Shown here one piece after another: positions 8,612 to 51,173 of a DNA stretch of 64,000 nt (position 1 is the first letter of the stretch; each line of letters begins with the position of its first letter). The translations under genes and the position numbers were made by a program. The notes beneath the pieces are model-generated. The model was not told the DNA's origin. It searched no databases and saw nothing but the letters and a program-made list of their open reading frames with translations. Origin of the DNA: Mayamaea pseudoterrestris (lineage: Eukaryota); NCBI GenBank assembly GCA_027923505.1, contig BROI01000001.1:1364001-1428000 (forward strand). Reading direction: 5' to 3'.

Positions 8612-9988
8612 AACAGAACTTAAAGTCTAAATGGCCTAGTGAAGAATTGTATTGCACGTTCTATATCTTGAATCAGACCCTAACGTAACTACTAGCTATC
8701 AATTGATACCTATTTGAAGTGGGTTTATGGCAGCCAGCTACTGCAGACAAGCATGGGGCCACAAAATTTTGACAGTCCCTGTTACAGAACTTGAGGACCA
8801 GATGGCCTAGTGAGGAATGCATTGCACTTTCTACATCATGAAACAATGCCCATCAACTGCCAGCAAACAATTGATTCATCTCTAGCTGCTAAAGCGGGTT
8901 ATGGCAGCCAGCTACTATGGACAAACCTGGGGCCAGAAAATTCTGGCAGTCCCTATCACTGAACTTGGAGACTAAAGGGCCTATTGAGGAATGCATTGCA
9001 CTTACTACATCATGAAACAGTGCCTGTCAACTGCCAGCTATCAATTGATACCTCTCTGGCTGCTGGAGTGGGTAATGGCAACAAGCTACTGTGGACAAGC
9101 CTGGGGCCACAAAATTCTGGCAGTCCCTGTCGCAGAACTTGGAGACAAGATGGCCTAGTGAGAAATGCATTGCACTTTCTACATCATGAAACAATGCCTG
9201 TCAACTGCCAGCTATCATTTGTTACCTCTCTAGCTAGTGAAGTGGATTATGGCAGCCAGCTACTGTGGACAAGCCTGGGGCCTTGGAATTCTGGTGGTCC
9301 CTGTCGCAGAACTTGGAGACTAGATGGCCTAGTGAAAAATGCATTGCAGTTTCTGCATCATGAAACAATGCCTATCAACTGCCAGCTATCAATTTTTTAC
9401 CTCTCTAGCTGCTAAAGTGGGTTATGGCAGCCAGCTACTGTGGACAAGCCTGGGGCCACGAAATTCTGGCAGTCCCTGTCACAGAACTTGGAGACTAATA
9501 GACCTGATGATGAATGCATTGCACATTCTACATTATGAAACAATGCATGTCAACTGCCAGCTATCAGATGATACCTCTCTGGCCCCTGGAGTGGCTTATG
9601 GCAGCCAGCTACTGTAAACAAGCCTTGGGCCACGAAATTCTGGCAGTCCCTGTCATAGAACTTGGAGACTAGATAGCCTAGTGAGGAATGCATTGCACTG
9701 TCTACAACATGTTACAATGCCCATCAACTGCCAGCTATCAATTGATACCTCTCTGCCTGCTGGAGTGGGTTATGGCAGCCAGCTACTGTGGACAAGCCTG
9801 GGGACACAAAATTCTGGCAGTCCCTGTTGCAGAACTTGGAGACTAGATGGCCTAGTAATGACTGCATTGCACGTTTGACATCATGAAACAATGCCTGTCA
9901 ACTGCCAGCTGTCTATTGATACCTCTGTAGCTAGTGGAGTGGGTTATGGCAGCCAGCTACTGTGGCCAAGCCTGGGGCCATCAAATTC
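8612..9988. repeat. 174-bp tandem satellite, about 8 diverged copies, strongly CpG-depleted
   Basis: The ATGGCA(G/A)C anchor recurs at 8727, 8901, 9075, 9249, 9424, 9598, 9772 and 9946 (spacing 174, once 175). A degenerate partial unit starts at about 8612. Confidence 0.97.
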
Positions 9989-10253
9989 AGTCAGCTGTCA
10001 GAGAGAGGCGCAACTGGCGATGGTTGTTCCAACGGACTCGTAACTACCTCGGACATGGCACATGTTAAAATTAGAAAAAGCTCAATCTCATCCAAAGCTG
10101 CGATACATTCACTATTATAAAGTTGTGCTTTTGTAACATCCATTCTTTTAGCTATTGACAGATTGAGAGATAGATCATTTTTTCAAAACATGTATATCTA
10201 TAATAACGTTGTGCGACTACTAGCCACCGTCTCGCACATTAGGTTGAAAGTGG

Positions 10254-18229: not shown

Positions 18230-21200
18230 ATGGCAAAGTACGCGTATGCGCCATTGTCAGTGGTGAGTGCTTGATCTTGCATGGATGTAGCCGATGCATG
18301 GCAGAGGGCGAGCAAATTACAAGCAATCATGAATCAAATGCGTCAGTACCTCATGAAGCAAGTCCAACTCTCACAAATATCATTTAATATCATTTATATT
18401 ATTTTTACAGGACGACCGCCGAGGCCGCAGCAGTGGCGGAGCAGCCGCAAACGCTTCCTCATCGCACCACCATCATCATCATTCCGACGTTCAGCAGGAC
18501 CACTTGGTGCAGGAGCGCATGCCCATGTGCATTGGGCTATGCGTCTTGCTGGCCATTGTCTACGTCTTGAGCAAGACGGGAGATGGCGCCACGGCGCTGC
18601 ATCAAAATGTTCGGACTTCCAATGAGCAACTGCAGCAGCACGGTTATCCCAATCAGCAGCAAGCAGGAGCATATGAATCCGTTCCAGCGACCAGTACGGG
18701 AGGAGGAACGACTCTAGCATCTCCAACGACGATTGCAACTACTAGCAGTAAAACTCCTCTTACAGACTGCCCCGTGTGTCCAGCCAATCCCCAGTCTGGC
18801 GATAATCACGCCGACTTGCTCGGCCAGCTGCGCGCCGCGGCATTGGCGAAAACGCCGCCGCACATTATCGAATGCTCCGCCGCTTCCGCCGGTGAATCGC
18901 AAGCCGCCTGCCACTTGCCAGCCGCCACTAGATTCGCTGCATTGAAACAAAAGGGCGCCGTCTTGTGGATGACTGGTTGCAGCGGCGCCGGCAAGACGAC
19001 ACTGGCCACGGCGCTGGAGGAGAAACTAGTCAAACTCTACGGCAAGCACGTGTATCGCTTGGACGGTGACAATCTGCGAACGGGTTTGAACCGTGACTTG
19101 GGCTTCAGCGAAGCGGATCGCGCCGAAAGTGTGCGGCGGACGGGAGAGTTGGCCACGCTCTTTGCCGACGCCGGTGTGGTGACGCTGGTGGGTTTGATTT
19201 CGCCGTATCGAGCGGATCGTGACGCCGTGCGTAAGCGACATGAGGATCAAGGAATTCCGTTTTACGAAGTCTTTTTGGATGTGCCAGTGGAGGAACTCAA
19301 GAAGCGAGACCCCAAGGGACAGTATGCGCGCGTGGAGGCGGGGGAGTTGAAACACTTTACCTGCATTGACGATCCATACGAAGAGCCACTACATCCGGAG
19401 ATTGTATTGAAAACGCACGAGTTGGCGATTGAAGAGTCGGTGGAAATATTGTTTCGGACATTGGAGCGAGATGGAATTTTGATTGGAGCGCCAAAGGTTT
19501 CGCCGCCGGGGTTGCCCAATCCGGACGGTGACGAGATTGTCGACTTGCACGTTCCGGATGCGCTCAAAGAGGAGCGAAGATTGGAAGCTGCCACACTTCC
19601 CAAGGTACTCATTTCCGACATTGAATTGAATTGGTTGCAAACAATTGGAGAAGGCTGGGCGAGTCCGCTCAAGGGTTTCATGCGCGAAGGAACGTTGCTG
19701 GAAACGCTTCACTTTAATTCGATTTTGGTGGATCCGTTCAACTTGACTGGAAACGCTGGCCGCCACACGAGACAGTCCGACTTGACGCACTTTACGCCAC
19801 GCCCGGCACCCGATCGAGTGAGCATGTCGGTGCCAATCACATTGTCGTGCACGTCATACACCAAGGATGCGATTGAATCGTCTGGCAAGCGGGCAGTGGC
19901 GCTGGTGACGCAAATGGGTCAGACGGTGGCCATACTGCGCGATCCGGAGATTTACGCGCACCGCAAGGAGGAGATTGTCACACGCATGTTTGGTGTTATC
20001 GATCCTGGCCATCCCTATATTAAACACATTTACGCTGGAGGCGACTGGTTGATTGGTGGTGAGGTGGAGTTGCTGGATCGTATTCGCTACAATGATGGAC
20101 TCGATCAGTGGCGCAAGTCTGTGACGGAGCTCATGCAGGAGTTTCAGCAAAAGGGAGCCGATACAGTGTACGCCTTTCAGACGCGCAATCCGACTCATGC
20201 TGGCCATGCCTACCTTATGCGATCGGCTGGTGAGGACTTGCGCAAGCAAGGCTACAAAAAGCCAGTGCTCTGGCTCAGTCCACTTGGTGGCTGGACCAAG
20301 GAAGATGACGTTCCACTCGACGTTCGAGTAAGGCAACATGAGCAAGTCTTGGCGGCTGGTACGACGCATCCTGGTGGATTGGATCCAGAGACGACCGTCA
20401 TGGCTATTTGGCCGGCACCAATGGTTTACGCTGGGCCGACGGAAGTGGAGTTTCATGCCAAGTCGCGTCGAGTGGGAGGAGCATCCTACTTTGTCGTTGG
20501 CCGCGATCCAGCAGGCATGAAGGGATCGTTGGAAGCGTGGGCGCATCGCGATGAAGACTTGTACGACGGTGATCACGGACGATACGTGCTACAAAACTCG
20601 CCGGGCATTGGCGACATGCAAATGCTCAGTTTCACCAAGGTCATGTACGATATTACGGACAATGTCATGAAGGAACCCGACGAAAGTAGGCCAGACGACT
20701 TTATTAGTATTTCGGGTACCAAGATGCGAGCGCTGGCTCGACAAGGTGCGACGCCATGCAGCGCCACAAACATTCCGACTGATCTCTTGGGGGCCAACTG
20801 TGTTCCAAGTGGGTTCATGGTTCCCGATGGATGGGGCACTGTCGTGGATTACTACAGTCACATTGAGGATTCAACGCGCTGGATTCCGTGGAGTCGTCCG
20901 CAGATTGAACCTTTGCTCGATGCAGGAGTGACGTACGATGGAAAGTTTGGCACGCAAACGTTCCAGCTAAGGAGCAGCCAGTATGCTAGCTGGTGGCACG
21001 ACCCACCCTTGCGGCCGTCCAAAGCGGATGAGACCATTATCTCGTATGTGTCTGAAATACCAATGTTTTACACGCCCAAGTTGGAAGTGCGAAAGAATTG
21101 GCCCAACAATCCGATTGTTCAAGACATCAACAAGGATGGTTCCAACCGTTATTACACGTATGGTACACCTTTTTTCAATTACGGTCTGATTCCTCAGACA

Positions 21201-21674
21201 TGGGAGGACCCCAACGTTAAGTCGAGTACAGGTTATGGCGGCGACAATGATCCTTTGGACGTCATCGAGCTTGGATCAGCTCAGCTCGCCATTGGAAGTA
21301 TAACGCCTTGTCGCGTCTTGGGTTCACTCGAGCTAATCGATGAGGGCGAGACGGATCACAAGATTCTATGCATAGCGCTAACCGACAAGGATGCATCGTC
21401 AATCAAGTCGATGGATGACCTTGAGCGCGTCAAGCCGGGCCACATGGATAGACTGAGAGATTGGTTGAAGCGATACAAGACTAGCGACGGCAAATTGGAG
21501 AATTCGCTAGCGTCGGAAACTCCCAAGACCGTGGGCGAAGCTCTGGCTGTGATTAACGAAACCCACTTGCGTTGGAGAGCCCTCTGTGGGCATGATGGCA
21601 CCTCGCTCTATTCGCTGACGAGCACGGCGTCCGAATTTTGGCTGGACAGCCCAAACTGCCGAGGGAAGAAGTAA
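18230..21674 (+). CDS. Trifunctional APS kinase - ATP sulfurylase - inorganic pyrophosphatase (PAPS synthase) with N-terminal membrane anchor, 2 exons (18230-18262, 18411-21674)
   Basis: APK: WMTGCSGAGKTT, LDGDNLR, RDPKG.Y, IDDPYEEP. ATPS: EGWASPL.GFM, AFQTRNPTHAGH, VGRDPAG. Family I PPase: NYGLIPQTWEDP, GDNDPLDV, IDEGETDHK. Upstream mini-exon MAKYAYAPLSV is joined in frame by intron 18263-18410 (gtgagt...tttttacag). Confidence 0.93.
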
Positions 21675-23178
21675 TTATATAAGTGAAAAAATACTTGAAG
21701 ATTGTCCGAATGTCCTTTGCGTTATAGTACAGTTAGAATTTGCAATCGCTACGAAGTTTTTGCATCAAATGAGGTCCCAAATATACTAAGCATTATACCT
21801 GCTTTAGTTTACACTTACAAAAGAATGTGTACAGTATATAAGGATTACGTACTAGCAAAGCGGATGCGCTCATTAGCCATGGCGCGAAATAGCATCAATA
21901 GCAACTACGCGAGTCGATTGCCTGCGTTAATTGTACCAAGATGTATCTTCGTCAGCCAACGATTGGGTGTTTGGTTTGGGTTTAGCTCGCATGTCTATAG
22001 GAGCGCCCGATGGCGACAAGTATTGGATGCTAAGACGTGCGTCACCATAGTATTCTCGTCCGTTCATCTGCATCGCCCGAGCGGCAGATTCGGCATTACC
22101 AAACTCAATAGTTGCACTACCAGAACTTCTGCCATCTCCTTGAACTTGCAAGTTACATGAATTAATTGGTCCAAAAGTGGAAAAGTAGTCCATCAAGTCT
22201 TGCTTTTGCGTTCGCCATGGAAGCCCGCCAATCTGTATCTTTCTGTAAGGTGGTACGACGCGGTCACTCGCTGCTGCTGCACCGCCAGTCGGCGCGGCAT
22301 GATGAGAACCATATCGCTCGTTGCCACTTCGTGAACTAACAACGCTTTGTCTCGGGGAAGCTCTGGCTGTGATTAACGAAACCCACTTGCGTTGGAGAGC
22401 CCTCTGTGGGCATGATGGCACCTCGCTCTATTCGCTGACGAGCACGGCGTCCGAATTTTGGCTGGACAGCCCAAACTGCCGAGGGAAGAAGTAATTATAT
22501 AAGTGAAAAAATACTTGAAGATTGTCCGAATGTCCTTTGCGTTATAGTACAGTTAGAATTTGCAATCGCTACGAAGTTTTTGCATCAAATGAGGTCCCAA
22601 ATATACTAAGCATTATACCTGCTTTAGTTTACACTTACAAAAGAATGTGTACAGTATATAAGGATTACGTACTAGCAAAGCGGATGCGCTCATTAGCCAT
22701 GGCGCGAAATAGCATCAATAGCAACTACGCGAGTCGATTGCCTGCGTTAATTGTACCAAGATGTATCTTCGTCAGCCAACGATTGGGTGTTTGGTTTGGG
22801 TTTAGCTCGCATGTCTATAGGAGCGCCCGATGGCGACAAGTATTGGATGCTAAGACGTGCGTCACCATAGTATTCTCGTCCGTTCATCTGCATCGCCCGA
22901 GCGGCAGATTCGGCATTACCAAACTCAATAGTTGCACTACCAGAACTTCTGCCATCTCCTTGAACTTGCAAGTTACATGAATTAATTGGTCCAAAAGTGG
23001 AAAAGTAGTCCATCAAGTCTTGCTTTTGCGTTCGCCATGGAAGCCCGCCAATCTGTATCTTTCTGTAAGGTGGTACGACGCGGTCACTCGCTGCTGCTGC
23101 ACCGCCAGTCGGCGCGGCATGATGAGAACCATATCGCTCGTTGCCACTTCGTGAACTAACAACGCTTTGTCTCGGGGA
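21537..23178. repeat. Exact 820-bp tandem duplication covering the convergent 3' ends of the PAPS synthase and bilin reductase-RRM genes
   Basis: 21537-22358 is repeated at 22357-23178 with no differences seen by eye. 2-bp GA microhomology at the junction. Confidence 0.96.
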
Positions 23179-26100
23179 TGCAGGTCGATTCGATGGCTTT
23201 GCCGAGGAAGTGTCGAACTGGATGCTCAGCGTGCCCGGTCCGAATATGTCGCCGTTCATCATCATTGCGCGCTGTGCTGATTCTGGATCAGCAAATTCCA
23301 GAAGAGCTTTCCCTACTGGTTGGCCATCAGCATGCAGTGGCAGTTCGCAACTGACCAATTCTCCAAAGGTTGAGAATTGCTGATAAACTTCTTCTCGCGA
23401 CATTCTCCAATTCAATCCTGTAACGACAAGTTTAACCGATCCGCCACGTGACGATGCCCGACCTTGTTCAGGTGGCGGTCTGTCGCCAGCTCTCTCTTGC
23501 ATACGGCGCTCTTCTCGTGCAATCTTTTCCTCCAAGAACCTTATCTTTGCCTCCATCTCGGCTTCGAGTTCGGCCTCTTCGCGGGGTTGCGCTTCGGAAC
23601 GTTGATTGTTACGGGCAGGTGTTTCTCTTTCATCTGGTCGCCCTTGCGAAACGAAAAAATCGTCTCTCGTGCTGCCTTTTGACGAAGAAGATGTGGACTG
23701 TCCTTCCGCTGACGGAAGACTGGCTATATACTCTTCTCGTTCTTTCTCCAGTGCCATGTATTTTTCTTTCCACAAGGAGACTTCCTCACTCGTCAACTTT
23801 ACCTTCTCTTCAAGACCTTTATTTTCGCTTTCCTGCTGGTCAATCAAAGCTAGCATATTCTTTCTCTCTTCAAATAAATCCTTTACATCTTCATCGGACT
23901 GGGATGCTTTGGCGGATATACTAGTCAACTCTCGTTTGATATTCGTGTTTTCCTTTTCGAGTGCATCGGCCCGCTTTTGCAGCTTTCTGCGCGCTTCTTC
24001 GAGACCGATGGACTTTTGAAATTCATTCGACGCCACTTCGCTTGAAGACGCCAGCTCAGTCTTTAGTTCTGTATTCTCCTTTCCCAAGGTATCAACACGC
24101 TCTAAAAGTTTTGTCTGATTGTACTGTAACAACTTGAGCTTGTCGTCGATTTCTGATTGTGCTTCTGATGCTGATACGTTAGCAGTCTTTAGTTTACCAT
24201 TCTCGTTCTCAAGCGTCTCGACGCGCTGAAGCAGCTCGTCCCTCTCCGACTCTACCTTTTTGTACTTCTCATCCGATATTACCGTAGCATTCTTGCTGAT
24301 AGACATGCGGTTCTGTAGCTCAGCATTTTTTTTCTCCAGCATCTCCAATCTCGCATCGGCATCCTTTTGCTTCGCAACAATCTCGTTGTATTTCTGATCC
24401 GCAATGGCGGCTGTTTCGTTTGCTTTATCTAGCAAAGATTGCAGATTGAGGTTTTCCTTTTCGAGCGATTCAACTCGTGCGTTCATTTTCTCGCGTAGCG
24501 CCTCTAGTTCCTTGCTTGTAACGCCAGACTGAGAAACAACATCGTTAACTGAAGAAAGTTCTTTGCGAAGGCCTTCGTTTTCCTTTTGCAACGTCTCGGA
24601 TCGACTTGAAAAGCTGTCGCGGTCAACGCTCATCTTATTGTACTTATCCTCCCACTGCGATACCACCACGCTTGTAGCAGATAGTTCTTGGTGTAACGCT
24701 TTATTCTCCTGCTCCAATGTATCCAATCGCGAGCGAAGAGTAACAAGTTCCTGCTTGTCTCCTTCCAAAGCCTTGTAGATTTCGTCCCATTGTGTCACAA
24801 CGTCGTACGCCTCCGATAGTTCCGCCTTTGGTGGCTCTGAATGGGACTCGCTTTCATCGTTTAGTGACACGGAGACAGCCTCCAATTCCTCCGGAACGTC
24901 AGGCTCGGTGGAATTACGAAACTCAATATTATCGCCAGCTAACTCCCCTTGTACCATGCTAGCCGCATCCACGGACGATTCTCGGAGCTGCTGTGGCTCT
25001 TCAACTTTATCAACTACATCCTTGTCGACGTTGGTGGTAATGGTCGATTCCGCACTCTTCAACGGCGCCATATCTGCTGTTTGATCCTTGTCGAAACTAG
25101 ACGAGGACGTTTGCTTCGTGTCTGGCGGCGGCAATTCATACTGCACACTGAGTCGACCGTATCCATAGTAGTCGGATCCATCCATTTTTAATGCCGCGGC
25201 CGCTCCATCGGCGTGCGCAAACTCCATGGACGCTTCGCCCTTGGCCAAACCGTCGCCACCAAGCGTCAATTTGCAGGCGAAAATCTCGCCGCACGAAGCA
25301 AAATGCTGAATCACTTCTTGGTTCGAAAGCTTCCAGGGCAGTCCACGAATATAGATTTTGGTGTCTGACGACGTCTCTGGTTGACGTTTCGATGCAGTGC
25401 GGCTGGAGCGAAAGACTGGCGACGCTTGGTTCAGCCGCGTGACGGTTGGCTTTTCTTTTGCAATATAGTGACCATACTTGATACTTAGTATACCTTCACC
25501 AAAGTAGTCCATGCCATTCGTCTTGACGGCTTGTATTGCCGCTCCAACGTCCCGAAACTCTAATAGCGCCGTGCCCGTCGTTTGTCCGTCGTTTCCTGCC
25601 AAGACTTTGCAAAAGACCAATTGTCCAAAGGAGGAAAAGTGCTGCACAATCTCCTGCTGACTCGCCTTCCACGGCAGTCCGCTGACTTGAATCTTGGTGC
25701 TGATGGTGCTTGTTTCGTCGACTTTGTTTTCGTCATCGTCATGATCGACTGAATCGTTGTTGTTGACCGAGTCGACAAAGAACTTGCTAGGCAATGGGGG
25801 CGGTGGCACAGTGGACGAGTTGTCGTCCACAGACGCGACAGAAGAAAAGTTACTTTCACCAGCACCACTACTACTAGTAACATTCGTCTTGCTTTCTTGT
25901 TGCGGAAACAATACTTGATGCAGCATGTAGTCGGTCCACTCTTGGCCAAAGAGCGACTTGAGCATGGGCTTGGCCGGGTCATTGTTGACGCGATATGTGA
26001 TATAGTCGGCTTGATGGTTGATTGAGTTGGCGCCACCTTCGGCAGCTGTAGCAACCACTATATTATCCTTTTGCTCACTGAGCAGTTGCAAGTAAATGTG

Positions 26101-26982
26101 TAAATGTTCCTCAAAGGCTTGCAGCAGTGGTCCTTGTATGGTTGGCAGTGGATTGTCGTCCTTGTCGCCGTCCTTGCCGCCAAAGCGCGTCCACAAGGCA
26201 TGCTTGGAAACATACGGCAGCACCGCCTCCGGCATGGTGCCACCCCACGGAAACTGCTGATTGACGTGAGTCTCGTGCCAAGATTGAAACTTTCGCGCAT
26301 ACACTTCGTTAGCATCAACATCCAACGCCATTGGCTGCGCGTCCAGTAGAATGAGGTGCTTGTTTCCCGGCAGACTGACAAAGTCGGCGCCCCAGACTGG
26401 TAGATTGGAGTTGGTGTTTGGAAAAATGACCAAGTTGAGCACTTGAATGCCGGCAGTGCTAACGTTAGTTGATAGTGACGTTGACTCTGCAGTTGCAGTT
26501 GTTGTGGAAAAGGGTATCGTTTCAAGCAGCACCATGCGCGCGTAGCGAATTGGAATACTGCTGCTGCCACTACTGCTACTCGACGACGCCTGCAACGCCC
26601 GCGCCGTCATGCGCACCACGTAGTCTTCCTTGGGTGTCTTGGCGGGAACGAGCCGACTGGTGTAGTCGGGATCCAAATCGACGGGTTCCAATCCGGGCGT
26701 TTGCTCCAGCTGCTTCCAAGCGGTTTCGGCAAAGGCAGAGTATGTTCCTGAATAGTAGTTGTTGCTTGATGATGACTTCAATGACGACGATTTTGATGAT
26801 TCAAATGCTGCTCCTTCCGTATTGTGACTCGCAAGAGCCGTTAGCTCTGCTGCACCTTTGCTGGTCCGCCTCCATCCGGTCGAAACATGGAGGCAGCTGC
26901 TGCGACGAGGTGCGACAAAGGCATGCGCCACTTGGGTCCATGGTAGCAGCAGCGCAATTTTCATGGCGTCTACTACTTTCAT
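22747..26982 (-). CDS. Plastid-targeted ferredoxin-dependent bilin reductase (PebB/HY2 type) fused to four RRM domains and a long coiled coil
   Basis: Signal peptide ending AHA-FVAP. FDBR motifs IQVLNLVIFP, LPVWGADFVSLP, LDAQP, PWGG.MP, ALWTR and Q.DY..YR..NDPA..ML..LFG.EW. Four RRMs with RNP2 (IQVSGL, IYIRGL, LVVTGL, IQIGGL) and RNP1-like G.A..EF. Single open frame. Confidence 0.85.
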   Translation of the reverse strand: MKVVDAMKIALLLPWTQVAHAFVAPRRSSCLHVSTGWRRTSKGAAELTALASHNTEGAAFESSKSSSLKSSSSNNYYSGTYSAFAETAWKQLEQTPGLEPVDLDPDYTSRLVPAKTPKEDYVVRMTARALQASSSSSSGSSSIPIRYARMVLLETIPFSTTTATAESTSLSTNVSTAGIQVLNLVIFPNTNSNLPVWGADFVSLPGNKHLILLDAQPMALDVDANEVYARKFQSWHETHVNQQFPWGGTMPEAVLPYVSKHALWTRFGGKDGDKDDNPLPTIQGPLLQAFEEHLHIYLQLLSEQKDNIVVATAAEGGANSINHQADYITYRVNNDPAKPMLKSLFGQEWTDYMLHQVLFPQQESKTNVTSSSGAGESNFSSVASVDDNSSTVPPPPLPSKFFVDSVNNNDSVDHDDDENKVDETSTISTKIQVSGLPWKASQQEIVQHFSSFGQLVFCKVLAGNDGQTTGTALLEFRDVGAAIQAVKTNGMDYFGEGILSIKYGHYIAKEKPTVTRLNQASPVFRSSRTASKRQPETSSDTKIYIRGLPWKLSNQEVIQHFASCGEIFACKLTLGGDGLAKGEASMEFAHADGAAAALKMDGSDYYGYGRLSVQYELPPPDTKQTSSSSFDKDQTADMAPLKSAESTITTNVDKDVVDKVEEPQQLRESSVDAASMVQGELAGDNIEFRNSTEPDVPEELEAVSVSLNDESESHSEPPKAELSEAYDVVTQWDEIYKALEGDKQELVTLRSRLDTLEQENKALHQELSATSVVVSQWEDKYNKMSVDRDSFSSRSETLQKENEGLRKELSSVNDVVSQSGVTSKELEALREKMNARVESLEKENLNLQSLLDKANETAAIADQKYNEIVAKQKDADARLEMLEKKNAELQNRMSISKNATVISDEKYKKVESERDELLQRVETLENENGKLKTANVSASEAQSEIDDKLKLLQYNQTKLLERVDTLGKENTELKTELASSSEVASNEFQKSIGLEEARRKLQKRADALEKENTNIKRELTSISAKASQSDEDVKDLFEERKNMLALIDQQESENKGLEEKVKLTSEEVSLWKEKYMALEKEREEYIASLPSAEGQSTSSSSKGSTRDDFFVSQGRPDERETPARNNQRSEAQPREEAELEAEMEAKIRFLEEKIAREERRMQERAGDRPPPEQGRASSRGGSVKLVVTGLNWRMSREEVYQQFSTFGELVSCELPLHADGQPVGKALLEFADPESAQRAMMMNGDIFGPGTLSIQFDTSSAKPSNRPASPRQSVVSSRSGNERYGSHHAAPTGGAAAASDRVVPPYRKIQIGGLPWRTQKQDLMDYFSTFGPINSCNLQVQGDGRSSGSATIEFGNAESAARAMQMNGREYYGDARLSIQYLSPSGAPIDMRAKPKPNTQSLADEDTSWYN

Positions 26983-27666
26983 CTTCCTTGCTGTCTTGTC
27001 AAGAAGCAAGCAGAGTATAGTATAATATGCAAGCGTACCGGTATCTCTCTGTTGATTGAATTTTGCGAGTGATGGATGGATCATGGATCCTCGTCGGCGA
27101 GGCATGCGTGTCACACTTCATGTCGTACTGCGATCGACTGACGATGTCATACCGTTACTAACTGTAAACACGGTTCGACGCTAGCAACTCGCTCAAGAGA
27201 TACCGTATATGTGCAAGGCCCTGTACACTCATTGTCGCGACGATGGCTGCGGTAGGTATTTGTGTATAGTGTTGGACTCGACCGTCATTGCTCTAATGAA
27301 TATCCAATTGATCCCGTTGCCTTGTACTAGCGCTGGAGTGCAACGAGTTGTATCAAGACTGATGATTTGAGTAACGCACGAATGGAGGCTATAATCGAAA
27401 AACTGATCCACATGGTTTTGTTGAGTCATGACTTATCTTACTCGCAAAGCACATGGGCTCATCATCACAGCCCCTTGCCAATGCGAAGAATTCGACAGTT
27501 AACCACGGGATTAGTTCTTGTCTTGTTTATGGATGCCATCCTTTATTCCTTCGTACGTTGTTCCTAATCTTCCATGCAGAATTCGCCTCGCCAATAACAA
27601 AGCGCCGGTTCCACTTGCTCTCATAAAATCAGTTTCCCACTTGCACACAATCACATTAAGATCACC

Positions 27667-28113
27667 ATGAAGACCATCATCTGCAACTTCCTCTTCGCCT
27701 TGACGCTCGCCGCTTCCACAAACGCCGCGCCGGCGCTCCGTGGTCTCGCCCGGAGCTGCAACTCTGAATGCTCCGCCGTCTTTACCACGTGCATTCGCGC
27801 ACCGGGAGCTGACAAGTCCGTTTGCAGGACTGCCAAAAAGGCGTGCCAGCTTGTCTGCAAGACGACGACTGACGTGAGTGTTCCATTGGAGGACGTTGAT
27901 CAAGTCGTCGATGATACCGAGAAGGACGTTGACGAAATCGTCGATGAGGTTGAGGATGTTGTTGATGAGGTCGTCGATGTTCCAAAGGTCGAATCCAAGG
28001 GCAAGTGCGTCAGCACGTGCGCCAAAGTCAAGAACGCTTGCATGAAGGCGGCTACTAGTAAGGAGAAGAAGGAGTGCATGCCAATCTTCAAGACCTGCAA
28101 GGAGGCATGTTAA
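27667..28113 (+). CDS. Small secreted protein with two six-cysteine units and an acidic spacer
   Basis: Signal peptide, then LRGL; two Cx3Cx6Cx10-11Cx6Cx3C units flank a D/E/V-rich linker; C/G-ending codon bias. Confidence 0.82.
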   Translation: MKTIICNFLFALTLAASTNAAPALRGLARSCNSECSAVFTTCIRAPGADKSVCRTAKKACQLVCKTTTDVSVPLEDVDQVVDDTEKDVDEIVDEVEDVVDEVVDVPKVESKGKCVSTCAKVKNACMKAATSKEKKECMPIFKTCKEAC

Positions 28114-28646
28114 GCGGTGGATTTGTTTGAGTGGACACGCGAGAACTATACAATCATAACCTTCTACTTTATAACGAGTATACAAAATAACTAGACTTAA
28201 TGTACATGAACAATATATATCATCTGATAGCTCGGACTTGTGACAGTATAATCCTACCGGTACCGGTAGTACAGCATTTGCTAACAATAGTCCGCGCAAC
28301 AAAGTTCTGTGGAACAAAAGTAAGACATCATGACGAGTGAGTGCTGGACAGTTGTCAATAGGTTACAATCTTTGCATGTCTCTTTGCGGCGGCGTTGACA
28401 GCTGTGGCTGGCAGCTACGTAGGTATCGAGATGCAATATTAGCTACCGTAGCTTGTCGACGCCGCGGAATTGTCGCAGCGTCGCTAAAAGTCGCACCATT
28501 ACTGCTGCGACATCTTCCATCGAGATCTTCGAAATCCATTCGAGAGAACGTCACCATGGTAATTCTCCGTTCATATCCTTTCAGTGCTCCTGCTATCGAG
28601 CTAAGCTACTCCAGTCGTAATTCAATTAATTTGCTTGCTATTAAGG

Positions 28647-43783: not shown

Positions 43784-44152
43784 GTGGAAATGAAACAGAG
43801 ACAATTGAGCGAACGGTGATTTTGATGGTGTCTGTAACTTTACTATATGACCGAATTAATACTTCATATGATATTCTTTGAAAGAGTTGAACGAAATCAT
43901 TGAGTAGCATGACTGCTTTAGCTATGTTAACCTTAAAAATCAGATTCACTTGGCGTTACGTGGTTGACGTTGGTGTCGAATTCGCCCAAGCGAGGAATCC
44001 TTTGCGACGACAAACGGCCATTGAGCAATCGACTTCTTGACGCTGCTCAGCTCTGATCACCACGACTACCGTAGAACGTCTCTCCGTCTTGTCGTCGTCG
44101 TCTATACCTACCTGCTTGCTTGCCTAGTCTGCTGAAATATCATAATAAAAAT

Positions 44153-45370
44153 ATGAAGCAAGCATCGCTACGCTTCTTGCTACTGCTGCTTCCATGGCAT
44201 GTCTCGGTTCGAGCCCACACGCCCTTTCGACGCAGCTCATTGACGGCAGACATTCATAGCAGCACCTCAGCGTCAAAAGAACTCGACAATCTACTAGACG
44301 GTCCAGCTGACGCTGCATCGCCCGTATTGTCACGAGGCGGATCGATTCGGACGGCATCCTTTGCCGCCGACGACGAGCGCTTGGGTTTGAAAGTGAGCAG
44401 CCAGGCAAAAGAAACCAAGGTTAACGAGTCTTTAGCGCCGGGTAATGCAGCAGCAGCTGTTACAGAAGCGTCTATTTCGTCTCGCATGCGCGGCGGAGAC
44501 AGCAGCAAAGACAGCATTGACAATACGTCCAAGTCCCTCTACCCCAAGAAAAAGCTGCATCTGCCGTGGCGCAAGGAGAAGCGTCACGACCAAATTGCCA
44601 AGCAGCTCAAGAACCGCAACAATGTCAACATTCGCCGCAAACTCATGCACGCCACCTTTGGCTTGACCTTTGCGTTCTTGAATCATGTCATTCCACGTAA
44701 TCGCTTTGTTCCAGGCATGGCTCTATTGAGTACCGCTACGTTAATCATGGAACTCTTGCGCTACCGCAAGGGCTTTGGCTGGATGAACGAGGCGCTGCAC
44801 TTTTGCTTGGGGTCATCCTTGCGCAAGAACGAAATGGCCGGCGGCTTCACCGGATCGTTTTACTTTTTCACGGGCGTGACACTCACCGCCTACTTGTTTC
44901 CCGGCACACCGGCTACCCTCGGCATGGCGCAGCTGGCGCTGGCGGATCCGAGCGCCAGCTACTTTGGCAGACGTACGCGGCACGTTTACTGGAGCCGGAT
45001 TGAGAATGGCTTGGGCGGCGTCGGACGCAACAAGGGGTGGCTGGGTTTCTTGGGCGGTGCGCTCTTTTGCTTTCCGTTCAATTACTATGTCTTGAGCAAG
45101 GCGGCGCAGCGCTGCGCGACGAGAGTGATAAGTGTCAACGCCGTCGTTGGCGTGTCGCTGCTATTGGGATTGGCGGGTGCACTGGCCGATTTGGCCGTGC
45201 CGACGCCAGCCTTGACGCTGCCGAAAAAGGTGCTGGGCGTACCGGTGCCGCCCTTTCACGTGGACGACAACATGGTGGTCCCCATCTTTTCGGCCTTTGC
45301 GTGTACGAAAGTGTTTCAGTTTTATGAATGGCCGCTGGACTTGGCGCTCGCCAAGTGGATTGTGTTGTAG
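44153..45370 (+). CDS. CTP-dependent lipid kinase (Dgk1/phytol/dolichol kinase family), copy A
   Basis: Motifs RRKLMH, LRKNE...TGSFYFF.G, ADP.AS.FGR, NK...G..GG and DDN.VVP. Signal peptide and multiple TM segments. Confidence 0.85.
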   Translation: MKQASLRFLLLLLPWHVSVRAHTPFRRSSLTADIHSSTSASKELDNLLDGPADAASPVLSRGGSIRTASFAADDERLGLKVSSQAKETKVNESLAPGNAAAAVTEASISSRMRGGDSSKDSIDNTSKSLYPKKKLHLPWRKEKRHDQIAKQLKNRNNVNIRRKLMHATFGLTFAFLNHVIPRNRFVPGMALLSTATLIMELLRYRKGFGWMNEALHFCLGSSLRKNEMAGGFTGSFYFFTGVTLTAYLFPGTPATLGMAQLALADPSASYFGRRTRHVYWSRIENGLGGVGRNKGWLGFLGGALFCFPFNYYVLSKAAQRCATRVISVNAVVGVSLLLGLAGALADLAVPTPALTLPKKVLGVPVPPFHVDDNMVVPIFSAFACTKVFQFYEWPLDLALAKWIVL

Positions 45371-45874
45371 AGGATGCGCGTGGTCGCATGAGAGTGCGCT
45401 CGTGCTACAAGTTAATGATTGCTGACAGATACAAGCTGATTGGTGTAAATACAAAGGCTAAATTTGTTTACAAAGGTTATAATGCAATGTACATACTAAA
45501 TAGTGCTCAAAATGTTGGCCATTGTTCTTTCGAGCTCCAAGTAAGCAACGACGCGAATCCGCATGTCGTAGCGGTCAGTTAATATCGTAGTGGTAATGAC
45601 CACGTCAGCCAAATTCTCGTCAGCGAGCGAGGCGACTCGATGGAAAACGGAGGCCGAAACCATGATGATGGGTCCGATCCGAGAGAACACCTTCACGACC
45701 AGCTCATTCACATGAATAACCCGCAATTAAAGACATTGTAATTTAATATTGGGGTGAATAAGTTTGCTGATACTTAAAACTAGCGTGAGAGAAGTTTTAG
45801 CACGAAAGAAGAACAGTTTGCTCACATTTTGGGCTCACATTTTTGAAGATCGAAAGCACACATTCCAGTGAACA

Positions 45875-47599
45875 ATGTCACGACTAGACAGACATTTCAT
45901 TCGCAGCACTTTATGCATCATTCTTGCTCTAAGCACTAGCCATGCATGGTTGCCTCCCTTTTTATCGACTGTAACCTCAAGGCCGCCTTCCGAAACGGAG
46001 TCACCCGCACCTCCGCAATCACCCCAGGAACTTGCCGAGGAACAAGCTCGCGCGCGACACAACAATGAAGCCTTTAACGCCCTCTTTGCTCACGCCGACG
46101 AGCACTTGCAGCCAACGCCGCTTACGTTTACGGCACCACTTCCAGCCGACCTTGCGCCTGGCTGTCTGTTGCGCATGGGTCCCAACGGTGCGCCACCTGA
46201 AGACGCATTCTTGGATGGTGACGGCATGATACATTCCATTAGCTTTCCACCAGCGTCCTCTGGTCTGCAGCCGCAATACTCGTGCGCCTATGTCAATACG
46301 GCCGGACGGCAAATGGAAGCCGTTTCCAACGGCAAGCGATTCATTGGAACACTTGGCGCGGCGCCCCAGGGCTGGCCCTTGCTGGGAGCCTTGGTGCGAA
46401 ACATGATCAACTTTCGAACCATTCAAGGATTGGAAGATTCGTGCAACACTGCCGTTGCGCAGCATGGATCCACCGTCTTGGCACTGATGGAGCAAGGTCT
46501 GCCGAGTGAAATACGAATCAAGCAAGACTCGAGCATGGAAACGGTGCAAGCGAAAACAACGTTGAATGGCGCCATTCCAAACAATGACATACTGAGCGGA
46601 GGTCAATTGAGTGCGCATGGTCGCACATGTCCAATCACGGGCGAGCGCATTCACGTCAGCTACTGCTCGGCGACGAAACCGTACGCTCGGGTGGACATTT
46701 TTGGTGTCGAGCGTGACTTGGATAGTGGCAACGTTCAAGGCTGGAAGTTAAAGCGGAGCATTCCAGTCAATGACATTGATGTTCCAGTCATGATTCATGA
46801 CAGTGCCATTACCGAAAACTATGTCATTATATTAGACTTTCCATTGACCATTCGACCCGAGCGAATGATTCGTAACATGTTTCCAGTCGAGTACGAACCA
46901 GCACACGGAGCGCGAATAGGATTGGTGCATCGGCATGACGAGAGTCGGCAGACGCAGTGGTATGATGTGGAGGCAGGCGTCGTGCTGCATACAATGAATG
47001 CATACGAAGATGCAAATGGGCGAGTGGTGCTGCAAGCCCTTCGAAGCGAGCCTCGTTGTGACGAGAGCTACTTGAGCCAATACGCTAGTGCCTTTCTATA
47101 CGAATGGGTACTGGACCCAACAACTAACAAGTTGTCGGAATACTTTTTGAACAAAGACACTCTGGTTGAGTTTCCGGTCATTGACGATCGTTACACAGGC
47201 ATGGACGCCAAGGAAGGATACGCTGTATCGGTCGCCTCAATTGGAGGTCCGCTGCGGGTCAACCGAAATCCAAAAGTCGGGATTACGCTCGATGGTGTCG
47301 TCAAGTTATCTTTGTCGGGCGATGATAATGGCCGAGTGCTGAGTCGCTACACGCTTCCGCAACGTTGGTACGGTGTCTCTGAACCGACAGTCGTCCCAAA
47401 GAAAGATTCTGAGGGTTGCTACGTCTTCGTCGTGGCTACCCAAGTTCCGTTGGAGGCACCAACTAATATGGAAACTTCTCGTGTGATCCTTCTGGACGGA
47501 GATGACTTGTCAAGAGTGGTCTGGGAGGCGGAACTTCCATTCACTGTGCCGTATGGACTCCATTCGAGCTACATCCCTTGGGATGAGCTGGTGCAGTGA
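45875..47599 (+). CDS. Carotenoid cleavage oxygenase (RPE65/CCD family), plastid presequence, copy A
   Basis: Motifs R.GPN, DGDGMIH, NTA, SAH, MIHD.AITENY, H..NAYE, EFP.ID.R, EP..VP and PYGLH (four iron-ligand His). Signal ending SHA-W. Confidence 0.92.
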   Translation: MSRLDRHFIRSTLCIILALSTSHAWLPPFLSTVTSRPPSETESPAPPQSPQELAEEQARARHNNEAFNALFAHADEHLQPTPLTFTAPLPADLAPGCLLRMGPNGAPPEDAFLDGDGMIHSISFPPASSGLQPQYSCAYVNTAGRQMEAVSNGKRFIGTLGAAPQGWPLLGALVRNMINFRTIQGLEDSCNTAVAQHGSTVLALMEQGLPSEIRIKQDSSMETVQAKTTLNGAIPNNDILSGGQLSAHGRTCPITGERIHVSYCSATKPYARVDIFGVERDLDSGNVQGWKLKRSIPVNDIDVPVMIHDSAITENYVIILDFPLTIRPERMIRNMFPVEYEPAHGARIGLVHRHDESRQTQWYDVEAGVVLHTMNAYEDANGRVVLQALRSEPRCDESYLSQYASAFLYEWVLDPTTNKLSEYFLNKDTLVEFPVIDDRYTGMDAKEGYAVSVASIGGPLRVNRNPKVGITLDGVVKLSLSGDDNGRVLSRYTLPQRWYGVSEPTVVPKKDSEGCYVFVVATQVPLEAPTNMETSRVILLDGDDLSRVVWEAELPFTVPYGLHSSYIPWDELVQ

Positions 47600-47699
47600 C
47601 TCGTCGCGACGAGATTTGATAAGAAACTTAAACTTTACATATAATTACATGCATTTAATTTTTGTTGGTTCGTGCAATTACTTGAGCGCAATATATTGG

Positions 47700-47830
47700 A
47701 CGATTATACTTCAGCAAGTAAAGCATCCGGAATTGGGCAACGCTGTGCTGCACAATCGGTTGAGACAACACAACGGGGTTTTGGTCTCCCGAACAAACTT
47801 CTTCTTCGTAGTGTCATAGCATGTGCAAAG
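47700..47830 (-). pseudogene. Decayed fragment of a MYND-finger gene paralog (also at 52999-53129)
   Basis: CTCYDTTKKKFVRETKTPLCCLNRLCSTALPNSGCFTC-stop aligns to CSCFEAKKKELVRKTQTSFHCLNKLCTTALHSTNFFTC of the adjacent MYND gene. Confidence 0.7.
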
Positions 47831-48013
47831 AGTGTGCTTCGTTGTTGTTGCTATTCGACGGTCAAGTGAGATCTCGCTTTGCCTCGTCTGTGTAGGTGCC
47901 AAATCCGTTTCGGTCTGACTCTCGTCAGATCGGTCCCTTCCGCCTGTGGCAAAGTGCAAATTCCGGCGCGCAGCAATCATGAGGCGTCTAATTATTGCCC
48001 ACTAACTTAAAAA

Positions 48014-49217
48014 TCAACGTCTTGACTTCTTTCCTTTTGGTCTCGCTCGCAGTTTGTTGACATTGCAAAACACCTTGTGAGCGTACCAATCAGCTCTCTG
48101 GCAGTCTGCAGAACAATCTACAGCTACATCGCAGCCATTGCACGTGAAAAAGTTCGTCGAGTGTAGTGCGGTGGTGCACAATTTGTTAAGGCAATGAAAT
48201 GACGTTTGGGTCTTTCGAACCAATTCTTTCTTCTTAGCCTCAAAACAAGAGCATGGGGCACGATGGATGAGGAAAAGCGACAAGCACTCGAACCCATTCA
48301 GGCCGATGGAGTTTGAAATGCTCGCTTCGTCAGCAGCCGGCGGTATCTCCATCGCTTGTTCTAAAAGTATCAAGATCAAGCCAATCGGTAAAGTTTGAGT
48401 CACAATAAGCTTCTCCTCCTCCTCTTCTCCAATCAGAGTAAACAGCATATTAAGACCTTTTGCAGTCAGCTTCTGTAAGAAAGTGGGACCGTCAGAGAGA
48501 CAAGGCAGAAGGATATTTCTGGCACGCGACCGGCCAATTGTCTCCCATTCTTCGATGTTAAACAATCTCACTTGTTGCAAAATTGCAGCCATTCGCTCTT
48601 CGTACGGATCACATCCGTCGGCCTGCATTGTGTCATATCCATGTTTGCAGTTGGGCGGCGAGTTGACTAACTTGACCTTTGCTGACGTGAATAATTTGCA
48701 CTTGAACCTGTGTCGCGGCCAATCCCTCTCTTGACAAGAGACAGAACAATATGTGATGGAACAATTCTCACATTCAAATACATCTAGACCTTTGATTATT
48801 TTAAAGCACCCTCGGTGTTGGCAAAAGTGCCCAGTGGGTGTGTCCTTTAATTTCGCCTTGACGTGATCAAAGCATGAGCACGGAGCCCGCTCAACGTAAA
48901 ACAATAAGAGGTTCGCCGGGTACATCAGATCACCGATCCCGTATTGCTCTTGTTCTGTTATCGATCCCTCTCCATTTCTCTCTACGTGGGTAACAAGCGT
49001 ACATAGCACATTCAGTTGATTGCAGTTTGGTTCCAGACAAGTCCATAGTCGAAGACCTGTCGCGACGATTTTTCGGATCATCGTTTCATCAAGGTTATTG
49101 ATAATGTCAACAATTGATGACCCCATATTTGCTACCACGTTATCGCAGTTGGTTCCTTGGATTTGACTAAACAGTATGATTACGTGCCTCATTACGTTGT
49201 TCATCTTGTCCTTGTAG
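48014..49217 (-). pseudogene. 5'-truncated copy of the tandem MYND zinc-finger gene (in-frame ATG remains at 49204)
   Basis: Identical to the 3' part of 53313..54665 but cut by the duplication junction. Lacks the first 50 codons. Confidence 0.8.
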
Positions 49218-49451
49218 TAGCTACGTTAACCTTAGTAATCTGTTTCACTTGGCGTTACGAGGTTGACGTTGGTGTCGAATTCGCCCAAGCGAGGAATCCT
49301 TTTGCGACGACAACGGCCAGTGAGCGATTGACTTCTTGACGCTGCTCAGCTCTGATCACCACGACTACCGTAGAACGTCTCTCCGTCTTGTCGTCGTCGT
49401 CTATACCTACCTGCTTGCTTGCCTAGTCTGCTGAAATATCATAATAAAAAT

Positions 49452-50669
49452 ATGAAGCAAGCATCGCTACGCTTCTTGCTACTGCTGCTTCCATGGCATG
49501 TCTCGGTTCGAGCCCACACGCCCTTTCGACGCAGCTCATTGACGGCAGACATTCATAGCAGCACCTCAGCGTCAAAAGAACTCGACAATCTACTAGACGG
49601 TCCAGCTGACGCTGCATCGCCCGTATTGTCACGAGGCGGATCGATTCGGACGGCATCCTTTGCCGCCGACGACGAGCGCTTGGGTTTGAAAGTGAGCAGC
49701 CAGGCAAAAGAAACCAAGGTTAACGAGTCTTTAGCGCCGGGTAATGCAGCAGCAGCTGTTACAGAAGCGTCTATTTCGTCTCGCATGCGCGGCGGAGACA
49801 GCAGCAAAGACAGCATTGACAATACGTCCAAGTCCCTCTACCCCAAGAAAAAGCTGCATCTGCCGTGGCGCAAGGAGAAGCGTCACGACCAAATTGCCAA
49901 GCAGCTCAAGAACCGCAACAATGTCAACATTCGCCGCAAACTCATGCACGCCACCTTTGGCTTGACCTTTGCGTTCTTGAATCATGTCATTCCACGTAAT
50001 CGCTTTGTTCCAGGCATGGCTCTATTGAGTACCGCTACGTTAATCATGGAACTCTTGCGCTACCGCAAGGGCTTTGGCTGGATGAACGAGGCGCTGCACT
50101 TTTGCTTGGGGTCATCCTTGCGCAAGAACGAAATGGCCGGCGGCTTCACCGGATCGTTTTACTTTTTCACGGGCGTGACACTCACCGCCTACTTGTTTCC
50201 CGGCACACCGGCTACCCTCGGCATGGCGCAGCTGGCGCTGGCGGATCCGAGCGCCAGCTACTTTGGCAGACGTACGCGGCACGTTTACTGGAGCCGGATT
50301 GAGAATGGCTTGGGCGGCGTCGGACGCAACAAGGGGTGGCTGGGTTTCTTGGGCGGTGCGCTCTTTTGCTTTCCGTTCAATTACTATGTCTTGAGCAAGG
50401 CGGCGCAGCGCTGCGCGACGAGAGTGATAAGTGTCAACGCCGTCGTTGGCGTGTCGCTGCTATTGGGATTGGCGGGTGCACTGGCCGATTTGGCCGTGCC
50501 GACGCCAGCCTTGACGCTGCCGAAAAAGGTGCTGGGCGTACCGGTGCCGCCCTTTCACGTGGACGACAACATGGTGGTCCCCATCTTTTCGGCCTTTGCG
50601 TGTACGAAAGTGTTTCAGTTTTATGAATGGCCGCTGGACTTGGCGCTCGCCAAGTGGATTGTGTTGTAG
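49452..50669 (+). CDS. CTP-dependent lipid kinase (Dgk1/phytol/dolichol kinase family), copy B
   Basis: Identical translation to copy A. Confidence 0.85.
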   Translation: MKQASLRFLLLLLPWHVSVRAHTPFRRSSLTADIHSSTSASKELDNLLDGPADAASPVLSRGGSIRTASFAADDERLGLKVSSQAKETKVNESLAPGNAAAAVTEASISSRMRGGDSSKDSIDNTSKSLYPKKKLHLPWRKEKRHDQIAKQLKNRNNVNIRRKLMHATFGLTFAFLNHVIPRNRFVPGMALLSTATLIMELLRYRKGFGWMNEALHFCLGSSLRKNEMAGGFTGSFYFFTGVTLTAYLFPGTPATLGMAQLALADPSASYFGRRTRHVYWSRIENGLGGVGRNKGWLGFLGGALFCFPFNYYVLSKAAQRCATRVISVNAVVGVSLLLGLAGALADLAVPTPALTLPKKVLGVPVPPFHVDDNMVVPIFSAFACTKVFQFYEWPLDLALAKWIVL

Positions 50670-51173
50670 AGGATGCGCGTGGTCGCATGAGAGTGCGCTC
50701 GTGCTACAAGTTAATGATTGCTGACAGATACAAGCTGATTGGTGTAAATACAAAGGCTAAATTTGTTTACAAAGGTTATAATGCAATGTACATACTAAAT
50801 AGTGCTCAAAATGTTGGCCATTGTTCTTTCGAGCTCCAAGTAAGCAACGACGCGAATCCGCATGTCGTAGCGGTCAGTTAATATCGTAGTGGTAATGACC
50901 ACGTCAGCCAAATTCTCGTCAGCGAGCGAGGCGACTCGATGGAAAACGGAGGCCGAAACCATGATGATGGGTCCGATCCGAGAGAACACCTTCACGACCA
51001 GCTCATTCACATGAATAACCCGCAATTAAAGACATTGTAATTTAATATTGGGGTGAATAAGTTTGCTGATACTTAAAACTAGCGTGAGAGAAGTTTTAGC
51101 ACGAAAGAAGAACAGTTTGCTCACATTTTGGGCTCACATTTTTGAAGATCGAAAGCACACATTCCAGTGAACA

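Follow-up and report, generated by a model that had tools for sequence, protein, structure and literature searches.

Does a bilin reductase gene of a freshwater diatom really continue, within one open frame, into a set of RNA-recognition motifs (RRMs), and what could such a protein do? The question is raised by a minus-strand frame in a 64,000-nucleotide stretch of the Mayamaea pseudoterrestris genome (contig BROI01000001.1, positions 1,364,001 to 1,428,000), which is called the window here and to which all positions refer. The frame is open without interruption from an ATG at 27105 to a stop at 22747-22749 (1452 codons), and Pfam profiles recognise in it both one bilin reductase of the ferredoxin-dependent type (FDBR) and four RRMs, which bears out the initial annotation in assigning all parts to one frame. 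It belongs to a known family of enzymes, but its domain architecture, restricted to a few lineages, is undescribed, and in the public record it exists only as a hypothetical protein. Domains were searched with Pfam profiles, and with NCBIfam for the FDBR subfamily; residue numbers count from the ATG at 27105. Two AlphaFold2 models were used, one of residues 100-700 (59 aligned sequences) and one of residues 701-1452 (five aligned sequences).

The reading frame and its junction

The database contains an entry of 100% identity, the NCBI 'hypothetical protein MPSEU_000047800 [Mayamaea pseudoterrestris]' of 1420 residues, the gene model of which spans the whole fusion frame and departs from it solely at its first nine residues. 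The start of the deposited model (MKEIPT/ARKMKVV) needs exons of 5 and 10 nucleotides with a pair of short introns, all immediately upstream of the ATG at 26982 (26985-27125, minus strand), and a contig of run X2 (the runs are described below) is colinear with 26680-27045, without a joint, across this region. The two 5' micro-exons look like an annotation artefact. According to the genome paper, the deposited Mayamaea gene models were built with RNA-seq support (PMC9724779). The most plausible actual start of the fusion protein is the ATG at 26982, with the same frame staying open for 41 codons upstream of it, to the ATG at 27105. This start had been proposed earlier from the signal-peptide-like MKVVDAMKIALLLPWTQVAHA followed by FVAP, and the proposal is plausible, as both fused orthologues found in other lineages have a signal-peptide-like start with DA/FV aligned to AHA/FVAP of the window protein. 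The domain limits given earlier agree with ours to a few tens of bases, save for the helical region, which extends further 3' than 23740.

It is very improbable that the frame is an artefact, with two adjacent genes run together through a fault of assembly or base calling or because an intron carrying a stop was overlooked. Such an error would be in keeping with an assembly made from Nanopore reads, as the genome paper describes it (PMC9724779), and with several suspicious tandem duplications in the window, among them one that involves the 3' end of the fusion gene. However, contigs from four sequencing runs (X1-X4) agree with the window over the junction between the FDBR and RRM1, and the colinear contigs show no stop, indel or joint there, at 25672-25969 (X1 and X2), 25415-25969 (X3) and 25705-26388 (X4). 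The kind of these contigs is not on record; they come from one study and possibly from the same strain as the assembly. No joints were detected in them anywhere on 22360-28600. The same fusion is, moreover, encoded by three independent clusters of other assemblies, and the deposited model that spans the whole frame is RNA-seq-supported according to the genome paper (PMC9724779). The X4 contigs include a divergent allele with indels of net 0, -3 and +6 bases, and the frame is therefore kept. Among the 35 listed single-base differences between the alleles (four more are unlisted) 21 are synonymous, and within RRM1 eight out of nine. A random linker of 67 codons would be free of stops with a probability of about 0.04; given this, and the recurrence of the architecture in other organisms, a chance open frame is no issue. 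The stretch 27167-27584 is uncovered by the contigs of the four runs and contig ends lie at 27023-27051, which carries no weight for the transcript start or for expression. Two loose-end strings of the run contigs had no match within the window.

The duplication at the 3' end of the gene is an exact (100%) tandem repeat of about 820 bp, 21537-22358 and 22357-23178, the junction of which shares two bases (GA). Each copy comprises the final 138 bases of the sulfate-activation gene upstream, the intergenic spacer and, from the fusion gene, the end with RRM4 and the tail, and a truncated extra copy of RRM4 thus lies at 21927-22358. In X1 one contig of exactly 820 nucleotides covers 22358-23177 at a depth of 72 versus 40.7 beside it, and the contigs of X2-X4 pass 23177 unbroken. 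The duplication may be a real recent event or an assembly artefact.

The architecture recurs outside Mayamaea. Scanning with residues 42-470 (HMMER) gave 397 relatives at E up to 0.001, the best 150 of which were examined for length. Two further lineages, at 51% and 41% identity, have the window's order of parts from the presequence to a final SWY, namely P0003 (1353 residues, from Logan) and P0004 (1242 residues), a five-member cluster from ENA, JGI/IMG and Logan with one member called 'phycoerythrobilin:ferredoxin oxidoreductase' by JGI. As had been noted earlier, FDBRs are normally stand-alone: 146 of the best 150 relatives have at most 575 residues, the longer ones being only P0003, P0004, P0052 and P0132, and the shorter relatives among the matches listed carry PF05996 only (120/120). 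No RRM was found by Pfam in seven of the longer relatives. Named stand-alone orthologues include those of Seminavis robusta (P0170, 329 residues), Nitzschia inconspicua (P0185, 325 residues) and Entomoneis (P0025). The stand-alone diatom PEBB homologues are 41-56% identical to the window protein over the enzyme domain and share its presequence type and invariant residues, but they stop 0-6 residues after 'VLFPQ/K', where the fused proteins of the window and of the two other lineages continue into the module of RRMs and rod.

In a quick IQ-TREE phylogeny of 87 rows (the first 470 residues of four fused proteins, the 56 best HMMER matches, 12 shorter relatives and 15 distant sequences, with the remaining matches left out) the four fused rows form one clade inside the diatom-type group, with a support of 99 in the Shimodaira-Hasegawa-like approximate likelihood ratio test (SH-aLRT). 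They represent three lineages, not four, because P0004 and P0156 share one 90% cluster. The retention of the fusion in P0003 and P0004 and the single clade of fused forms support the earlier view that these are not two merged genes. It is likely that a single fusion event took place in one diatom sub-lineage, and it could have arisen when a PEBB gene lost its stop codon and was read through into a downstream gene. The fusion is therefore real and lineage-restricted.

Two scans of metagenome contigs, one with an alignment and one with P0004, yielded no confirmed locus. A search for a free-standing protein of RRMs, rod and RRMs (query residues 700-1452, lengths 798-2541) returned only P0002 and P0003 among the 7997 word-sharing candidates scored, which is no evidence of absence, and a search of the ESM Atlas with the RRM and rod part gave no usable match. 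A different FDBR fusion was seen in another lineage, in P0052 (967 residues, a seven-member cluster), in which an ATG22-like membrane-transporter part (residues 264-554) is followed by a bilin reductase (residues 775-956).

The bilin reductase domain

The enzyme domain was matched by the Pfam family Fe_bilin_red (PF05996) at residues 219-401 (score 120.7 bits, cut-off 31). Pfam left the first, N-terminal third of this profile unmatched, yet this part was modelled within the alpha/beta/alpha sandwich fold typical of solved FDBRs, and the predicted local distance difference test (pLDDT) score was mostly 85-98 over the domain (residues 113-406). Foldseek ranks 1-7 were occupied by the PEBB of Guillardia theta (GtPEBB), HY2, PebA and PcyA, with template modelling (TM) scores on the target of 0.68-0.78 and GtPEBB on top at 0.77-0.78. 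The sequence matches to solved structures were Guillardia PEBB (6QWQ, E 3.2e-26), tomato HY2 (3e-11), PebA (5.6e-9) and then PcyA, an order of relatives identical to that of the fold search. In NCBIfam the three PebB models scored best (114.1, 112.2 and 101.5 bits), followed by PebA (76.7) and PcyA (47.7).

GtPEBB (PDB 6QWQ/6QX6) is thus the closest known system by both sequence and fold. In this enzyme Asp-99, Asp-219 and Arg-215 are each essential according to the mutagenesis reported for it, and Arg-215 is characteristic of A-ring reducers (PMC6755814). The three residues align with D241, D376 and R372 of the window protein (with an offset of 2 in the chain numbering); D241 lies in WGADFV and both R372 and D376 in YRVNNDPA, and the columns of D241, D255, R372 and D376 are invariant in 56/56 aligned FDBRs. 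The initial annotation had named LDAQP and DPA as the acidic motifs. Both are present, with D255 and D376 as their acidic residues, but the equivalent of GtPEBB Asp-99, the central (proximal) catalytic Asp on the beta-sheet, is D241 and not the Asp of LDAQP. Going by the motif in the tomato HY2 alignment, D255 seems to correspond to the Asp which assumes this role in plant HY2, given as Asp-116 (PMC6755814). Ala-151 of GtPEBB, a small residue replacing an aromatic one, is aligned with V295, which is non-aromatic but larger than Ala. Both proteins are nuclear-encoded in an alga with a red-type secondary plastid. GtPEBB differs in being a stand-alone enzyme of about 275 residues from an alga that uses phycobiliproteins, whereas the window protein has about 1050 additional C-terminal residues and belongs to an alga without them.

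In the 87-row tree the terminal branch of the window FDBR measures 0.38 and the median branch 0.49; the enzyme domain does not, therefore, evolve fast. There is no sign of a dead enzyme, and the domain is presumably catalytically competent and would perform a two-electron reduction of the bilin A-ring. The earlier call of a PebB/HY2-type reductase agrees with the solved relatives, the fold matches and the intact acidic residues. Stramenopiles have been described to possess homologues of PebA and/or PebB, not of PcyA or HY2, with activities that await reconstitution (PMC10156173). Diatom PEBA-like sequences are reported to group with those of red algae and cryptophytes (PMC13193486). In the bilin pathway, the substrate of PEBB is supplied by PEBA.

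The RNA-recognition module and the proposed function

In diatoms, plastid import is marked by a Phe at +1 relative to signal-peptide cleavage, and such a Phe follows directly on the putative signal peptide here. The 54 residues of the following transit-peptide-like stretch include 18 Ser/Thr, 7 Lys/Arg and 3 Asp/Glu. Judged by eye, all three fused proteins begin with what resembles a plastid presequence of diatoms.

The RRM_1 family (PF00076) matched four stretches with 163.8 bits in all against a cut-off of 20.7. The four domains have the strand and helix order beta-alpha-beta-beta-alpha-beta, with pLDDT of about 66-95 by ten-residue block. RRM1 (about 466-545) and RRM2 (about 577-660) are modelled with confidence on either side of a low-confidence spacer of about 30 residues and are followed by about 100 low-confidence residues, and RRM3 and RRM4 are again confident, with a spacer between them and the end at residue 1421. 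Pairwise identity among the four is 38-49%, and they therefore look like products of internal duplication. Canonical RRMs carry aromatic residues in their RNP1 and RNP2 motifs, which served as the yardstick for scoring. The RNP1 strings of the window protein are TGTALLEF, KGEASMEF, VGKALLEF and SGSATIEF, and position 2 of RNP2 is Q, Y, V and Q. A GLPW loop is found in three of the four (RRM3 has GLNW) and in all four RRMs of P0004. The best solved match of RRM1-2 was the quasi-RRM of hnRNP H (6DHS, E 3.6e-10), and RRM3-4 better match generic RRMs (PABP, hnRNP D/A1). The quasi-RRMs of hnRNP F/H resemble the window domains in the G-L-P-W loop after strand 1 and in having no RNP aromatics, with G-E-A replacing the start of RNP1 in RRM2; they differ in that identity is low and RRM3-4 are closer to the generic type. 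Weaker Pfam matches of the RRM region were to Nup35-type and 'occluded' RRM families, and weak coiled-coil-type matches lay between the RRM stretches.

Between the two pairs of RRMs the model shows about 370 residues of nearly continuous helix (residues 760-859, 864-1060 and 1072-1128, pLDDT about 80-90), built of eight 42-residue repeats and about 55 nm long if straight. Cores resembling L-E-x-E-N recur every 42 residues, at 797, 839, 881, 923, 965, 1007, 1049 and 1091, and this period agrees with the 126- and 504-nucleotide spacings of a DNA repeat family. The rod probably pairs into a coiled-coil dimer. The S-W-Y of the C-terminal tail is invariant in all three fused proteins. The DBHS proteins (NONO, SFPQ, PSPC1), in which the coiled coil drives dimerisation and polymerisation, likewise have tandem RRMs followed by a long coiled coil and were among the fold matches (3SDE, 5IFM, 7PU5). 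This is a comparison of how the parts may work only: DBHS proteins are nuclear, have no enzyme domain and no second pair of RRMs, and possess, between RRM2 and the coiled coil, a NOPS region, a family absent from the Pfam matches of the fusion protein at E up to 0.01.

The linker between the enzyme and RRM1 (67 residues; 407-465 in the model) is low in complexity and predicted to be disordered (pLDDT 25-41). It holds SKFFVD, with a core K/N-F-F-V/A conserved in the orthologues; apart from this core, its length and sequence vary between them. The earlier observation that no Met lies between the FDBR and RRM1 stands, as Met is found at residues 381 and 394 and next at 532. The predicted TM (pTM) scores of the two models, 0.54 for residues 100-700 and 0.22 for residues 701-1452, predict therefore no fixed arrangement between domains, and the picture is one of beads on a string. 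A complex prediction of the FDBR with RRM1-RRM2 scored 0.00 (mark 0.34, without controls), which speaks neither for nor against binding.

The reading that we tentatively prefer, at somewhat less than an even chance, is that of an active, stroma-located PEBB-type enzyme which a C-terminal dimeric rod and the RRMs tether to plastid RNA or to a ribonucleoprotein. The protein would be the product of a single nuclear gene of this raphid diatom, born by fusion in one small diatom lineage, and would enter the plastid by means of its signal peptide and a transit peptide with Phe at +1. Its N-terminal PEBB-type domain would reduce the A-ring of a bilin by two electrons, and a disordered linker of about 65 residues would connect it to two non-canonical RRMs, the rod of about 370 residues and two more RRMs. 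With the rod paired as a coiled-coil dimer, the enzyme might be anchored by the RRM pairs at both ends to plastid RNA or to a ribonucleoprotein body, for instance the nucleoid, the ribosomes or an RNA granule. Bilin could then be made at that site, or the tethered RNA-binding module could enter the plastid together with the enzyme and stay coordinated with it. We infer each of these properties, that is, the plastid location, enzyme activity, dimerisation, RNA binding and tethering role. What the sequences do establish is the frame with its domains, the preserved catalytic residues, and a fusion that is conserved and of one origin.

Some observations weigh against this reading. RNP1 aromatics (positions 3 and 5) are found in none of the four RRMs and the RNP2 aromatic in RRM2 only, so that canonical RNA binding is doubtful. 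The PebB equivalog cut-offs (283-327 bits) are far from reached, with 114 bits versus 283, and the stand-alone Seminavis orthologue likewise falls short of them. The fused form is present in only three sequence clusters and is therefore not a general diatom feature, and the contigs of X1-X4 are a check on bases and not on transcript structure.

The same missing aromatics (RNP1 in all four RRMs, RNP2 in three) would suit RRM-like domains that bind proteins, in which case a long dimeric scaffold would attach the FDBR to some protein complex, for instance the import motor, an enzyme of chlorophyll synthesis or the surface of the thylakoid. RRMs of the Nup35 and 'occluded' types, to which the weaker Pfam matches point, are dimerising or non-RNA-binding, and the invariant S-W-Y at the C-terminus could be a docking peptide. 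A precedent, for the preferred reading as well, is found in PCYA1 of Chlamydomonas, which keeps its catalytic residues and binds protein partners through extensions at its N- and C-termini, by which it is seated on the Orf2971-FtsHi import motor, at the stromal face, as the preprint describes (bioRxiv 10.1101/2024.09.02.610899); an interaction of PCYA1 with LPOR has also been reported (PMC5974162). PCYA1 (in the Orf2971(Ycf2)-FtsHi structures PDB 8XKS/8XQW) resembles the window protein in being an algal FDBR with no phycobiliprotein client and in matching it in sequence and fold (8xqw_H), and it shows that an FDBR can be placed on a plastid machine by extensions, as is presumed for the window protein. 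However, PCYA1 belongs to the PcyA subfamily, and its extensions are short, touch membrane proteins and contain neither RRM nor coiled coil. Against a protein-binding role, RRM_1 is by far the strongest match of the module (163.8 bits), RRM2 has the hnRNP H quasi-RRM as its best solved match (E 3.6e-10), and the GLPW loop is kept in three of the window's four RRMs and in all four of P0004. Quasi-RRMs of hnRNP F/H bind G-tracts through loops without RNP aromatics, and we regard a purely protein-binding module as rather unlikely.

The linker itself would suit a polyprotein. The sole use of the fusion would then be that an RRM/coiled-coil protein which itself lacks a presequence rides into the plastid behind that of the FDBR, the two in equal amounts; the linker would next be cut by a protease of the stroma, and the two halves would act independently. 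The length, low complexity, predicted disorder and variability of the linker all fit this, the short K/N-F-F-V/A motif could mark a processing site, and the pTM of 0.54 gives no fixed arrangement of FDBR and RRMs. In addition, as no Met lies ahead of RRM1, the RRM part cannot be made alone. The processing site is only putative, however, and to our knowledge plastid polyproteins have been described in euglenids and dinoflagellates, not in diatoms. Even with cleavage, the retention of the fusion over lineages about 50-60% different in sequence would still speak for a link in function, and the polyprotein seems unlikely to us, if not strikingly so. That the FDBR is mainly a sensing head for bilin or ferredoxin, switching the RNA-binding module so that plastid RNA stability or translation follows heme breakdown or the photosynthetic redox state, is improbable. 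A fusion conserved in three lineages invites such a Rosetta-stone argument, bilins have been described as signals in algae without phycobiliproteins (PMC5974162, PMC9393634), and the role of FDBRs in stramenopiles is presented as still to be tested (PMC10156173). In contrast, no contact between FDBR and RRMs is predicted across about 65 disordered residues, the catalytic residues are fully kept, as in an ordinary enzyme, and close relatives manage with a stand-alone enzyme. The coupling of bilin, heme or ferredoxin status to plastid RNA metabolism that the initial annotation put forward is accordingly a hypothesis, as is its polyprotein alternative.

Features of the window and meaning of the fusion

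The features of the fusion gene are collected below.

Features of the fusion gene (positions in the window; residues counted from the ATG at 27105)
Feature	Residues	Positions	Strand	Basis and remarks
Whole open frame		22747..27105	-	1452 codons + stop
Probable start codon (26980-26982) and signal peptide MKVVDAMKIALLLPWTQVAHA, then F at +1 (AHA/FVAP)		26920..26982	-	Read by eye, orthologue alignment
Transit-peptide-like stretch	63-116	26758..26919	-	Residue composition
PEBB-type FDBR domain	117-402	25900..26757	-	Pfam, alignments, model
Key FDBR residues	D241, D255, R372, D376	26383-26385, 26341-26343, 25990-25992, 25978-25980	-	Alignment
Linker	403-469	25699..25899	-	Composition, model; acidic, Ser/Thr/Asn/Pro-rich, without Met
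RRM1	470-544	25474..25698	-	Pfam, model; GLPW loop, RNP1 = TGTALLEF
RRM2	582-656	25138..25362	-	Pfam, model; best solved match hnRNP H quasi-RRM
Long helical rod	760-1128	23722..24828	-	AlphaFold2, repeat analysis; three helices with two short breaks
Conserved further helix EMEAKIRFLEEKIAREE, just before RRM3	1168-1207	23485..23604	-	Orthologues, confident model
RRM3	1225-1298	23212..23433	-	Pfam, model
RRM4	1349-1421	22843..23061	-	Pfam, model
C-terminal tail (31 residues), ending D-x-S-W-Y-N	1422-1452	22750..22842	-	Orthologue alignment

Convergent with the fusion gene lies a plus-strand frame of 1051 residues (18519-21674) with APS kinase, a PUA-like domain/ATP sulfurylase and inorganic pyrophosphatase. 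On the other side of the fusion gene, a divergent open reading frame (ORF) of 148 residues (27667-28113, plus strand) starts like a signal peptide and contains many Cys as well as an acidic repeat (VDEIVDEVEDVVDEVVD), and no Pfam family matched it. A tandem duplication with a period of 5299 bp (44013-49311 and 49312-54610) is 99% identical where compared, each copy holding a 405-residue ORF, an RPE65-type carotenoid oxygenase (574 residues) and a zf-MYND protein. Direct repeats at 55100-56144 and 62492-63544, about 7400 bp apart, are 95-97% identical; because the heterozygosity of the strain is given as 2.97% (PMC9724779), they could represent two haplotypes that the assembler placed one after the other. 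A six-copy array with a period of 174 bp at 8722-10066 has copies 69-85% identical to the reference copy.

Our literature search found no paper containing both 'bilin reductase' and 'RRM' and, in broader searches, no such fusion, with an earlier remark in a 2017 review of algal FDBRs remaining possible. The word 'bilin' does not occur in the Mayamaea genome paper (PMC9724779), nor the gene id in two of its supplement files.

Why algae without phycobiliproteins retain bilin reductases is a standing question. As a Rosetta stone, the conserved fusion names the RRM/coiled-coil module as a concrete partner in a diatom with a small genome. Even the modest outcome, an active enzyme parked on plastid RNA or on some protein complex, would if true be new for the FDBR family and would parallel PCYA1 on the import motor. 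More far-reaching, and distinctly unlikely in our estimate, the fusion may tie the synthesis of bilins directly and physically to gene expression in diatom plastids, in that the enzyme head would relay the state of bilin or ferredoxin to a dimeric RNA-binding module in the shape of a rod, which would control the stability or translation of particular plastid transcripts. In case such a link between bilins and gene expression holds true, the 'orphan' bilin reductases of phycobiliprotein-free diatoms would have a function.

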